NCBI GenBank assembly: GCA_963700285.1
Contig: CAVOXA010000006.1
Span: 96,001-160,000 of the forward strand
Reading direction: 5' to 3'
From: an uncultured Chloroflexia bacterium
GTDB lineage: Bacteria; Chloroflexota; Anaerolineae; JAAYZQ01
Length of the DNA: 64,000 nucleotides
The translations under genes and the position numbers were made by a program. The notes below the pieces were generated by a model. It worked only from the letters and a program-made list of their open reading frames with translations, did no database searches and was not told the origin of the DNA. This document shows, piece after piece, positions 5,895 through 14,464 of this stretch. Within the stretch, counting starts at the first letter, position 1. Each line of letters starts with the position of its first letter.

Positions 5895-7238
5895 CTATGG
5901 CCGCGGGCCCAGGATCGCGTCGGCCGGCATGCCTGGCTTGAGCAGGTAGTCCGAGTTTGGCAATTGTACCTTTACCGCGAATACCATGTTCACTCGCTCT
6001 TTTTCCGTCTGCACGTTCTTTGGAGTGAATTCGGCCTGTTGGGCAATGTGCGAAACGGTTCCGGTGAACACCTGGCCGGGAAAAGAGTCGACGCTCACCT
6101 CCACCGCCTGCCCCAGGAACACCCGTCCCAACTCATCCTCGGGCACATAGATCGTCAGGTGGACCGGGTCCAGGTTGGCCACGGTCAGCAGCGTCGCCCC
6201 GGGCAGAGCGACCTCGGCCGCATGGGCGGAACGGCTTGTGATCAGCCCGTCTATCGGCGCGCGCAGGATCATTTTGGCGAGCTGGGCCTCCAGTGCTGAG
6301 ACGCCCGCCTGGGCCTGAACCACCAGGGCCTCTGCCACGGCCACGTCCTCCGGCGCGGGGCCGGCTTTCAGCTCGGCCACTCGAGCCTCTGCCACCTCTA
6401 CCCCCGACTCGGCGACCTGGGCGTTGGCCTCGGCCTGATCTACCAGGCTGGCGATGGCCAAGGGCTCATTCCTCAGCGCCCTGAGCGCCGCCAGCGTCTT
6501 TTCGGCGCCGGTCTTGTCGGCCTGGGCCACCTCCAGCCCCGCCTGCGCTGCCTGTACCTGAAAATCATAGACGCGGTACAGCCCTTTTTCCTCCATCGAG
6601 CCCTGGCCGTGGTAGGGGTATCTCATGGCCTCCGCCCTGGCGATCTCCGCCCGGGCCTGTTCGATCTGAGTCTCGGCCAGATCCACAGCGGCCCTGGCCT
6701 CCACGATCTGGGACTGGATCTCCTGGGGGTTATCGAGCAAGGTCCGGGCGTCCAGAACCGCCGAGCGGGCGGCGTCCCGTTCGGCCTCAGCCTGGAGCAG
6801 CATCGCCTCGGCTGCCAGGATCTGCGCGGGATGGACGCCAGCCTGGACATTGGCCAGGTTGGCCTGGGCCACTGCTACCGCCGCCCCAGCCTGGGCCAAC
6901 TGAGCCTGGAGCGAGCTGGTGTCCAATTCGACAAGCACCTCATGCTGTTCGACCGCGTCGCCTTCCTCGGCATCCAGGCGCACGATCCTGCCGCCAAACT
7001 CAGAGACAACGGCTACCTCGTCCCCCTCGATGCTGCCTGAGGCGATGAGGGCCTCGTCTTCCGCTGCCACAGCCTGCCCACCGATGGAGGCCACGAATGC
7101 CTCGGCCCGGCTGGCCTGCAAACCGCCGTCGATCAGGAACTGCGTAGCCTGCTCCGGCGCATTCTGCACCCACCACCAGCCCCCGGCTAAGGCTGCCACT
7201 ACAATGAGTATCGAAATGATAATGAGCCCACGTTTCAT
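5895..7238 (-). CDS. HlyD/efflux periplasmic adaptor (membrane fusion protein)
   Basis: N-terminal TM, lipoyl half-motifs, long coiled coil, AEFTPKNVQT..ERVNMVFAVKV, LKPGMPAD. Confidence 0.92.
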   Translation of the reverse strand: MKRGLIIISILIVVAALAGGWWWVQNAPEQATQFLIDGGLQASRAEAFVASIGGQAVAAEDEALIASGSIEGDEVAVVSEFGGRIVRLDAEEGDAVEQHEVLVELDTSSLQAQLAQAGAAVAVAQANLANVQAGVHPAQILAAEAMLLQAEAERDAARSAVLDARTLLDNPQEIQSQIVEARAAVDLAETQIEQARAEIARAEAMRYPYHGQGSMEEKGLYRVYDFQVQAAQAGLEVAQADKTGAEKTLAALRALRNEPLAIASLVDQAEANAQVAESGVEVAEARVAELKAGPAPEDVAVAEALVVQAQAGVSALEAQLAKMILRAPIDGLITSRSAHAAEVALPGATLLTVANLDPVHLTIYVPEDELGRVFLGQAVEVSVDSFPGQVFTGTVSHIAQQAEFTPKNVQTEKERVNMVFAVKVQLPNSDYLLKPGMPADAILGPRP

Positions 7239-7251
7239 GTTTTTCCCCTGC

Positions 7252-8652
7252 TCACTGCTCTGTCAGGATCACGGCATCGGCTGGCATACCCGGCTTGAGC
7301 GCGTGGTCGTCGTTTGGCAGTTTCACCTTTACGGCAAAAACCATGTTCACCCGCTCCTCACGGGTCTGCACGTTCTTGGGCGTAAACTCGGCCTGGCTGG
7401 CGATAAAGCCAACCGTACCCGGAAAGGTACGGTCCGGGTAGGCATCCACGGTGACCGAGACCGTCTGCCCAATCTGTACCAGGCCTACCTCGTCCTCTGG
7501 CACAAAGATGGTCAGCGTCATGTTTTCCAGGTCGGCCAGGGTCGCCAGAGGCGCCCCGGGGACAGCGAGTTCCCCGACGTGGGCAGGCATCTCCAGCACC
7601 AGGCCGGAGATGGGTGCTGGCAGCACCAGCTTTTCCACCTGCACCTCCAGCAGGTCCAGCGCGGCGCGCGCCACCTCGACCTGTGCACCAACGGCGGCGA
7701 TCTGCTCCGGCGTGGCCCCAATCTCCAAACCTTCAACCTGGGTCTCGGCCAATCGAACTCCCGAGGTGGCTATCTCGTACCAGGACTCGGCGGCATTTGC
7801 GGCGGCTTGCAGGGCCACCGGGTTGGCTCGCTGTCGCTGCAGTTCAGCCAGGTACTGCGCGGCGCCCTTTTGGGCCGCCTTGGCCTGGTCCAGCCCGGTC
7901 CAGGCCACCCAAGAGTCGTAGGTTGAGATGGCCTGCTGCTGTTCAGTCTTCAGCCTGACGTCGGCCGGCAGCTTGACGCGATACTCAGAGCCGCCTACGG
8001 GAATATTGAACGGCTCAAAATCCTCCACCATGCGAGCGGCCTGATCGGCCAGGTCACGGCCAGCCTGGGCCGAATTGGCCAGCGCCTCCACCTGCTTGGT
8101 GCGCAGGTTCAGGCTCGCGACGCGAGCCCGTGCCGCCGTAATGGCCAGATCCAGTTCCTGGGGATTGTCTCGCAAGCGTTGGGCATCCTCCCAGGCCACG
8201 AGGGCGGCCTGCTGGGCAGCCCGGGCCTGTTCCAACTGTGCCCGGGCGTGGGCCAGCGTCTCCTGGCGCACGCCAGCTTTCACCTGGGCCAGGGTTGCCG
8301 CCTTCACACCCAGATCCGCCTGGGCCATCTCAATCTGGGCCTGGAGCAACGCGTCATCCAGCTCCACCAGCGTGGCGCCCGCGGTAACCTCATCGCCTTC
8401 GCCGGCATAGAGGGCCACGATGCGCCCTGCTAGCTCGGTCGTCACCGAAGCCTCGTCGGCCTCCACGAAACCCGAGGCGACAATACCTGGCGGCTCTACT
8501 TCAGGCTCCAAACCCAGCTCTTGAACTGCGCCGTCCAATACTTCTCGAGCCTGGAGCAGTAGCGTGGGGTTTTCGTTGGCGTACCACCAACCTGCCGCCA
8601 CTGCAGCCGCCACTACGACACAGACAACCGCTATCACAATCGCACGTTTCAT
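7252..8652 (-). CDS. HlyD/efflux periplasmic adaptor (second paralog)
   Basis: Same architecture and near-identical C-terminal AEFTPKNVQTREERVNMVFAVKV motif. Confidence 0.92.
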   Translation of the reverse strand: MKRAIVIAVVCVVVAAAVAAGWWYANENPTLLLQAREVLDGAVQELGLEPEVEPPGIVASGFVEADEASVTTELAGRIVALYAGEGDEVTAGATLVELDDALLQAQIEMAQADLGVKAATLAQVKAGVRQETLAHARAQLEQARAAQQAALVAWEDAQRLRDNPQELDLAITAARARVASLNLRTKQVEALANSAQAGRDLADQAARMVEDFEPFNIPVGGSEYRVKLPADVRLKTEQQQAISTYDSWVAWTGLDQAKAAQKGAAQYLAELQRQRANPVALQAAANAAESWYEIATSGVRLAETQVEGLEIGATPEQIAAVGAQVEVARAALDLLEVQVEKLVLPAPISGLVLEMPAHVGELAVPGAPLATLADLENMTLTIFVPEDEVGLVQIGQTVSVTVDAYPDRTFPGTVGFIASQAEFTPKNVQTREERVNMVFAVKVKLPNDDHALKPGMPADAVILTEQ

Positions 8653-8674
8653 GAGCTACCCCTACACAAGAGAG

Positions 8675-13739: not shown

Positions 13740-13742
13740 GGT

Positions 13743-14378
13743 CTATTCCCCACTTCCGGGCCGCAGGCCGTCAAACAGCAGTGTTGCCTGGACCTCGGGC
13801 ACCTCGTGCCACCTCGACCGGAGCGGCTCGTCGTCGAGGATGCGCAGGAAGAGCAAACCGATAATCATCGCCTGCACGACACGTACCGTCAAAGGCACAT
13901 CGACCGGCCGGATGTGCCCCAGGTCGATCTGCGCCTGAAAATAGGGTTCCAGGAGCGACGAAATGCGCGAAACGTACTGCTGGTAGAACTGCTGGCGCAG
14001 CTCGGCGTTGACGAAAACCTCCGGCAGGACCGCCTGAAGCATTTCCTGCCCTTCCTGCATACGACCCATGCGCTCCCGGAGCGCAGCGGCAAAGAACGTT
14101 TTGACGTCACCATGCAGAGATTGCATCAACTCGCCAGGCAACCGCTCTAGCTCGGCGATGCGGGACATGATGACCACGAGCAGATGGAGCTTGTTGTCGA
14201 AATAGTTATAGATGGTGCCATCGGCCACGTCGGCCAGCTCGGCGATATCGCGGATGGTGGCCTGGTGAAAGCCCTTCTGGGCAAAAACCGCGGCTGCTGC
14301 GTCGAGGATCCGGGCCTCACGCTCGCGCTTTTGCCGGTCCCGCCGCGACAACGACTGATCCTCCGCTGGATTGCTCAT
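13743..14378 (-). CDS. TetR/AcrR family transcriptional regulator
   Basis: [41 protein letters not shown] 14378 after GGAGG. Confidence 0.93.
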
Positions 14379-14400
14379 AGGAATTGTCCTCCGGCGCTTT

Positions 14401-14464
14401 ATGAATGCTCGTTCAATATTGAATGAACATTCATTATTGTACCACACATCAGGCCGGATGTCAA
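14401..14464 (-). promoter_or_regulatory. Sigma70 promoter with tandem TetR-type operator
   Basis: Minus TTGACA(14459-64)-17-TACAAT(14436-41); palindrome TGAATGAACATTCA at 14420-14433 and related TGAATGCTCGTTCA at 14402-14415. Confidence 0.8.

Follow-up and report, generated by a model that had tools for sequence, protein, structure and literature searches.

A methyltransferase and HgcAB-like corrinoid fusion recurrently embedded in an ABC exporter operon of Chloroflexota: a possible accessory methylation module

Why do a methyltransferase dependent on S-adenosylmethionine (SAM) and a corrinoid protein resembling fused HgcAB lie between the permease and ATPase genes of an ATP-binding cassette (ABC) exporter? 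The question is raised by a 64,000-nucleotide stretch of DNA, here called the window, from an uncultured Chloroflexia bacterium (assembly GCA_963700285.1, contig CAVOXA010000006.1, positions 96,001 to 160,000 of the forward strand). On its minus strand the methyltransferase CpaM and an HgcAB-like fusion form part of an ABC-2/HlyD operon, for which an original prediction, made from the sequence alone, had proposed methylation and export of a toxic metal, metalloid or organic substrate. The pair itself is already catalogued; what is new is its recurrent embedding in a YbhGFSR-like operon of Chloroflexota, in two fusion architectures. Our tentative interpretation, which stops just short of being probable, is that the pair is an accessory module passing methyl groups from SAM to cobalamin, and that its organic, likely hydrophobic cargo is exported by the YbhGFSR-like ABC pump in Chloroflexota. 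The operon and its control sites are composed as follows (window coordinates):

17744-17792, minus strand: upstream sigma-70-type promoter (17792-17764, 11/12 consensus match) and predicted TetR2 operator (17757-17744)
17092-17715, minus strand: TetR2 (PF00440), heading the permease A/B cassette
16801-17070, minus strand: membrane protein of 89 amino acids (aa), kept in orthologous loci
15654-16793, minus strand: ABC-2 permease A, YbhS/YbhR-like (PF12698)
14524-15651, minus strand: ABC-2 permease B (PF12698)
14402-14464, minus strand: internal sigma-70-type promoter (14464-14436, 11/12 match) and tandem palindromic predicted TetR1 operator
13743-14378, minus strand: TetR1 (PF00440), regulator of the permease C cassette
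12618-13739, minus strand: ABC-2 permease C (PF12698)
11870-12601, minus strand: CpaM, class I SAM methyltransferase (NF043040)
10747-11883, minus strand: HgcAB-like fusion (NF043039)
9703-10725, minus strand: ABC ATPase 1, DrrA/YbhF-like (PF00005)
8675-9646, minus strand: ABC ATPase 2, with canonical motifs (PF00005)
7252-8652, minus strand: HlyD/YbhG-like adaptor 1 (PF16576, PF13437; best NCBIfam match NF002939, below cut-off)
5895-7238, minus strand: HlyD/YbhG-like adaptor 2 (PF16576, PF13437; NF002939 below cut-off)

All eight genes that had been placed between TetR1 and adaptor 2 were found in the claimed order, from the positions of their open reading frames and from Pfam or NCBIfam matches, with gaps of 3, 16, -14 (an overlap), 21, 56, 22 and 13 nucleotides (nt). 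The CpaM stop does overlap the fusion start, which is a GTG codon. Less survives of the idea that one promoter/operator drives the unit: a promoter-like site is present at 14464-14436, but the unit is larger and has a second one at 17792-17764. The region 14524-17792, with TetR2, the small membrane gene and permeases A and B, belongs to the exporter unit too, and the whole comprises three permeases, two ATPases and two adaptors. A scan for sigma-70-type promoters returned 9 sites, against 2.8 +/- 1.8 in shuffled sequences. The upstream promoter-operator region is conserved in 5 orthologous loci, and the strict TetR2 operator pattern occurs in 8 of the 13 exporter loci of TetR2 type. The internal promoter begins 60 nt after the end of permease B and is followed by two tandem imperfect palindromes (14433-14420 and 14415-14402); in the 7.05 Mb genome this paired motif has a single occurrence, and orthologous loci retain it. 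Since the GC content at third codon positions is uniform over all twelve genes (0.73-0.84), the CpaM/fusion pair is seemingly not a recent acquisition. In the H-loop, ATPase 1 carries a proline in place of the histidine of ATPase 2, which suggests one degenerate site. Language-model features liken the 89-aa protein to GlsB/YeaQ/YmgE (atlas score 0.91), a lead only.

What the two embedded proteins are could be settled by profile searches of the kind proposed with the original prediction. CpaM, which adjoins a corrinoid gene, scores 282.5 bits against NF043040 (cut-off 180); in the alignment its C-terminus is about 28 aa longer than that of its orthologues. The fusion reaches 393.5 bits against NF043039 (cut-off 285) and stays below the cut-offs of both HgcA (NF040863, 151.9 bits against 275) and HgcB (NF040864, 51.5 bits against 99). 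In one chain it combines a CdhD-type corrinoid domain, four predicted transmembrane (TM) helices and a 2[4Fe-4S] ferredoxin with two CxxCxxCxxxC motifs. Its structure model has a predicted local distance difference test score (pLDDT) of 91.9 and a predicted template modelling score (pTM) of 0.88, and the corrinoid domain matches the folds of the HgcA model and of CFeSP, the corrinoid iron-sulfur protein (root-mean-square deviation 1.6 Å over 126 columns). An HgcAB-like fusion is thereby confirmed as it had been described, but its novelty is reduced by the fact that the pair is already a named NCBIfam unit.

The fusion was expected not to be a canonical mercury methylator, and besides falling under the HgcA and HgcB cut-offs it departs from them at diagnostic residues. 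The cap-helix Cys74 is invariant in two homologue alignments, and the cap motif reads NVWCASGG; the high-stringency HgcA motif is N(V/I)WC(A/S)(A/S/G)GK in the accessible part of 10.1101/2022.03.14.484253, and the GK ending is found in 0 of 120 close homologues. No cysteine follows the second cluster in the window protein or in 116 of these 120 homologues. The available text of PMC7305189 describes HgcB Cys73 as essential for mercury methylation and the tail cysteine pair as nearly so, and the two cultured carriers of fused HgcAB made no methylmercury, as far as the accessible portions of PMC4646819 and PMC5893877 report. A canonical hgcA-hgcB pair lies on another contig of the window's genome (G000:C22:135115-136412, equal to L017:9116-10413) and exceeds both cut-offs (442.9 and 108.8 bits), so that this genome is predicted to belong to a mercury methylator independently of the fusion. 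Matches resembling hgcA were also seen in genomes G001, G008, G016 and G019. Several HgcAB-like fusions (P0189, P0205, P0212, P0214, P0216, P0221, P0232, P0234, P0246, P0252, P0265 and P0166) have an extra hydrophobic N-terminal domain of 120-180 aa, for which no Pfam match was obtained in the two proteins scanned, and in P0270 a canonical HgcA (446.7 bits) stands behind a fused ArsN2-like acetyltransferase domain. Identity of CpaM with the arsenic methyltransferase ArsM was ruled out: CpaM scores 53.3 bits against NF008823 (cut-off 263), and of the ArsM-type catalytic cysteines only that of motif I is shared by a majority of 60 CpaM rows. CpaM is UbiE/MenG-like in sequence, and the fold matches of CpaM domains include Coq5 and phospholipid N-methyltransferase. 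No CpaM relative was found among the viral contigs searched.

That methyltransferase and fusion act as one module is well supported outside the window's own clade. The 125 non-redundant loci examined there comprise 71 taken from the best 80 of at least 599 matches, 17 from the phylum of a Desulfobacterales genome (19 of 20 matches over the cut-off taken) and 37 from that of a Heimdallarchaeota genome (40 of about 50 taken), 5 duplicates having been removed from the last two sets. CpaM lies upstream of the corrinoid gene or is fused to it at 122 of these loci. CpaM sequence occurs within the same chain in 19 of 150 cluster representatives, and 14 of the 79 representatives scanned pass the CpaM cut-off. 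A natural CpaM-corrinoid-ferredoxin fusion is predicted to fold with a pTM of 0.88 over 589 residues, a value not expected of two freely linked halves, which suggests that the methyltransferase is docked in a fixed arrangement. Canonical HgcAB takes the methyl group for Co(I) from SAM with no partner protein, according to the accessible text of PMC11588087, and a SAM-presenting partner for the fusion fits with this donor. CpaM could instead be restricted to reactivation. At locus L312 toxin-antitoxin-like genes split the pair, and a membrane-anchored glutaredoxin-like gene precedes CpaM there (L312:5587-8695) and in L313 (6992-7468).

Within Chloroflexota, the location of the module inside this exporter operon is a conserved feature, seen again in a second subfamily. 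In the family set of 23 genomes (the order-level set consists of the same 23) the fusion exceeds its cut-off in 10, one further genome having a frameshifted copy, and all 10 copies retrieved lie inside the exporter operon. A tree of the corrinoid-plus-TM region was built from 116 of 173 rows (every linked, CpaM-fused or class-level row, and every second one of the others). The window's clade contains 16 rows (support 99), of which 15 are exporter-linked, and its linked rows cover four families as well as metagenomes, in at least five gene orders. Among the matches listed in a metagenome scan were 3 members of this clade, two of them linked and one interrupted by a sequence resembling an insertion sequence. 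A second subfamily, with a free ferredoxin and with CpaM joined to the HgcA-like part in one chain, forms a separate clade of 19 rows (support 96). It is tied to the same type of pump in 3 of these rows: L317 and L346 within the operon, L337 divergently and a few genes apart. The order in L317 is TetR2-like regulator, fusion, ferredoxin, a small gene, permeases A and B, an F420 reductase, TetR1, permease C, ATPases and adaptors, and that in L346 is fusion, one gene, ferredoxin, ATPase and adaptor. An approximately unbiased test rejects a tree that gathers the 18 linked rows into one clade (p 0.0004), although an ancestral link with many losses remains compatible. The two linked subfamilies thus mean that the module was recruited repeatedly or that an old link has been lost many times; the second subfamily raises the odds of a functional link to the pump over those of an insertion confined to one clade. 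Members of the CpaM-HgcA-like fusion subfamily (L329-L346 and L317, all Chloroflexota) have a fusion of about 540 aa and score near the NF043039 cut-off; L343-L345 show an altered cap motif, D[IL]WCL[VI]MRN.

Which of the two regulators goes with the pair? The original prediction had taken TetR1 as its sensor, and this no longer holds: TetR1 tracks permease C, and its promoter-operator layout recurs in loci devoid of the pair. The TetR1 group of the TetR tree (25 rows, support 98) includes no CpaM-adjacent TetR, while a 40-row group (support 86) unites 26 of the 32 CpaM-adjacent TetRs with the 12 permease-A-heading TetRs. This tree has 8 background rows and one unstarred branch, which tempers its weight. 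Of the 11 family genomes that carry the pair, 9 have an orthologue of permease A (at least 75%), against none of the 12 without it, a comparison made on incomplete genomes whose kinship makes them non-independent. At L018, L019 and L039 permeases A/B lead straight into CpaM. The internal promoter, its operator and TetR1 therefore belong to permease C; from the permease A distribution, the TetR grouping and the TetR1 layout in pair-less loci, the module goes with TetR2 and permeases A/B, beyond the coordinates first considered. Stand-alone CpaM loci give no support for a shared TetR2 operator: the strict pattern is present at 1 of 5 Anaerolineae loci and 0 of 26 others.

On these grounds a mechanism may be sketched. 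The fusion would bind cobalamin with Cys74 as the lower ligand, and its 2[4Fe-4S] domain would reduce the cobalt to Co(I). CpaM would dock on the corrinoid domain and present SAM, and the resulting methyl-cobalamin would give a carbanion- or radical-type methyl group to an acceptor beyond the reach of a plain SAM enzyme. A hydrophobic organic acceptor could thus be methylated at the membrane and then exported through permeases A/B; these would use the same ATPases and adaptors as the TetR1-permease C cassette, which would be regulated separately. TetR2 would sense the compound and turn on the module together with permeases A/B. An organic acceptor is suggested by the TetR partner, the lack of metal-handling cysteines, the UbiE/MenG-like similarity of CpaM and weak hints from neighbouring genes. 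Homologues of F420-dependent quinone reductases lie within 5 kb at 11 of 169 loci and PEMT-like genes near the module at 9 of 169; both are raw counts without a baseline, and several of the loci are closely related.

Other observations weigh against a functional tie to the pump. The neighbourhood survey proposed with the original prediction gave a divided answer: the pair is exporter-linked in nearly every row of the window's clade, but a same-strand permease, adaptor or orthologous ATPase is present at 0 of the 125 outside loci, 88 of which have at least 2.2 kb of sequence on both flanks; a divergent ABC-2 exporter stands beside one Asgard locus. Rare linkage to exporters in relatives, named beforehand as grounds for refuting the prediction, thus does hold outside the window's clade. 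Outside loci have heterogeneous immediate neighbours (106 of the 129 picked were scanned), the single recurrent one being a TetR immediately upstream of CpaM, at 24 loci. Genomes over the NF043039 cut-off numbered 27 of 401 in a class sample and 0 of 400 others in a phylum-wide sample (5 candidates scored per genome); the former count indicates that the latter sample under-represented the class. Among 33 further non-duplicate loci of the class survey only 5 are linked in-operon and 1 divergently. Conversely, the pump exists without the pair. ATPase 1 orthologues (75-80%) occur in 8 family genomes lacking the fusion; in 7 of these loci the ATPase is immediately preceded by permease C or TetR1, and in 1 a different methyltransferase intervenes. 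All nine class-level exporter loci, chosen by adaptor score out of 176 matches, lack the pair, which is present at an unlinked site in 3 of the nine genomes, and permease A/B cassettes without an adjacent pair were found in other families (L126, L128-L131). Module and pump hence do not co-occur wherever either is present, and an obligatory methylate-and-export machine, as first envisaged, finds no support. The window's clade may stem from one insertion event. On a one-gene rpoB tree, 7 changes, of which at least 4 are forced, are required to explain where the pair is present. The operon also receives other inserts, namely a second methyltransferase, a PMT-like membrane protein, a Usp and toxin-antitoxin-like genes. 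The operon is a modular chassis, in which TetR-plus-permease cassettes are stacked ahead of shared ATPases and adaptors, with assorted inserts.

Hitch-hiking is the main rival explanation and one we consider rather unlikely: a CpaM-HgcAB-like cassette with a job of its own would have entered an insertion-prone exporter operon once or a few times and would be expressed from the promoters of that operon while having nothing to do with the cargo. The pump-free outside loci, the intact pump without the pair, the patchy presence on the rpoB tree, the unrelated inserts at the same site and the grouping of exporter-linked fused copies in one clade all agree with it. It accounts less easily for a distant second subfamily, 3 of whose 19 rows are tied to the same pump, or for a link that persists through at least five rearrangements, and the chance of one such locus in about 4 Mb is, by a rough estimate, below 1% per genome. 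The pair and permeases A/B are moreover jointly absent in 12 of 12 pair-less family genomes, which would need deletions on both sides of the TetR1-permease C cassette if the window's order is ancestral.

The two remaining alternatives concern the substrate. The module might methylate a membrane lipid, glycolipid or quinone that the cell itself makes, the pump and its two long adaptors delivering the product to the envelope. This agrees with the membrane-anchored second methyltransferase and PMT-like protein at the same site in relatives, with the PEMT-like neighbours at 9 of 169 loci, with the Coq5- and phospholipid N-methyltransferase-like folds and with the absence of any TolC family match in the window's genome (89% complete). 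However, patchy distribution and TetR control better suit a response to an outside compound than housekeeping, and lipid-synthesis genes do not recur beside the module, so that we judge this improbable. Slightly more improbable still is detoxification of Hg, As, Se, Te or another soft metal with export of the methylated species. The invariant cap-helix cysteine and the suitability of methyl-cobalamin chemistry for electrophilic metals would allow it, and a true ArsM adjoins one outside locus (L086) and ArsR another (L065). The residues, however, give a metal or metalloid substrate no support: cysteines after the second cluster are missing, Cys73 of HgcB being described as essential in the available text of PMC7305189, and CpaM is remote from ArsM (53 bits against 263) with the motif I cysteine alone conserved. 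Neither cultured carrier produced methylmercury in the accessible text of PMC4646819 and PMC5893877, a separate hgcA-hgcB exists in the genome, and the regulators are TetRs. An accessory module acting on an organic cargo of the pump is the tentative interpretation retained here.

Several relatives differ in what surrounds the pair. A second SAM methyltransferase with a hydrophobic N-terminus stands directly ahead of ATPase 1 in L134 (1286-1927) and in L019, L023, L028 and L115, and occurs once without the CpaM pair. A membrane protein of 660 aa with a PMT-like predicted fold and no Pfam match lies between fusion and ATPase 1 (L021:10600-12612, L122:283-2265). The same-genus copy L028 (G001:C4) has many frameshifts across the operon, corresponding to assembly errors or decay. 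In the related loci L252, L255, L256 and L257 a citrate synthase-like gene, a class III aminotransferase and a VOC protein (named by reading of their sequences) precede CpaM, with an enoyl-CoA hydratase in three of them; a shared catabolic neighbourhood was rejected, the aminotransferase-VOC-hydratase cluster being confined to these four loci. A thiolase directly follows the pair in L315. Close to the operon, window positions 19010-24645 hold a TetR-led cluster of thiolase, hydroxyacyl-CoA dehydrogenase, hydratase and acyl-CoA dehydrogenase, and the intergenic stretch 18560-18760 contains repeated GC-rich inverted elements visible only as repeated peptides in spurious reading frames.

Comparison with known systems clarifies what is unusual here. 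In the CFeSP/methyltransferase (MeTr) couple of the Wood-Ljungdahl pathway and in the reactivation scheme of methionine synthase, a separate methyltransferase loads Co(I), as proposed for CpaM. The window protein shares the CFeSP fold, whereas its system is predicted to be membrane-bound, with a Cys-ligated cap and a SAM-type rather than folate-type partner. By their curated cut-offs and adjacent order, CpaM and the fusion correspond to the 'fused HgcAB' of Podar 2015 (PMC4646819) and Lin et al. (10.1101/2022.11.21.517362), in so far as the accessible text of these sources describes it, with the same cap-helix cysteine, TM domain and two ferredoxin motifs. The catalogued pair is a stand-alone or TetR-led cassette at 125 of 125 loci outside the window's clade, whereas that of the window is flanked by the permease and ATPase genes of an ABC-2/HlyD operon. 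HgcA and HgcB have homologous corrinoid, TM and 2[4Fe-4S] parts and, in the available text of PMC11588087, SAM as their likely donor. Unlike them, the window protein is fused, its cap ends in GG instead of GK, it has four predicted TM helices rather than the five described, it lacks HgcB Cys73 and the tail cysteines, and it has a dedicated methyltransferase partner.

The pump resembles the E. coli CecR(YbiH)-YbhG-YbhFSR system, which, in the accessible text of PMC7190983, also unites a TetR, a YbhG-like adaptor, two nucleotide-binding domains and paired YbhS/R-type ABC-2 permeases in one operon. It differs in that its ATPases are split, its three permeases fall into two cassettes with promoters of their own, its two adaptors are long, enzymes are embedded in it and the genome lacks a TolC match. 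Its proteins remain below the cut-offs for YbhG (NF002939, 149 and 174 bits against 393) and CecR (NF008587, 35 bits against 365). From its sequence it is thus YbhG-YbhFSR-like by layout and is not filed as a member.

A literature search, covering mostly open-access main texts, returned no paper using the terms CpaM, NF043040 or NF043039, nor any on the neighbours or function of the fusion. The lineage-limited pump link and the prior cataloguing of the pair limit the surprise of the finding. The locus nevertheless bears on the function of fused HgcAB proteins and on what HgcAB evolved for. Fused genes can inflate hgcA counts, the window's genome having both a fusion and canonical hgcAB. The locus also offers two handles, a dedicated SAM methyltransferase partner and a soluble TetR whose ligand could reveal the substrate. 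A broader and unlikely, speculative reading is that the ancestral job of the HgcA superfamily was to methylate an organic, membrane-soluble compound in a manner dependent on SAM and cobalamin. Chloroflexota would keep a TetR-sensed modify-and-export form, assembled at least twice from differently fused modules and the same ABC pump, and mercury methylation would be a derived, CpaM-less offshoot. If this were true, the TetR2 ligand would name the true substrate of 'fused HgcAB'.

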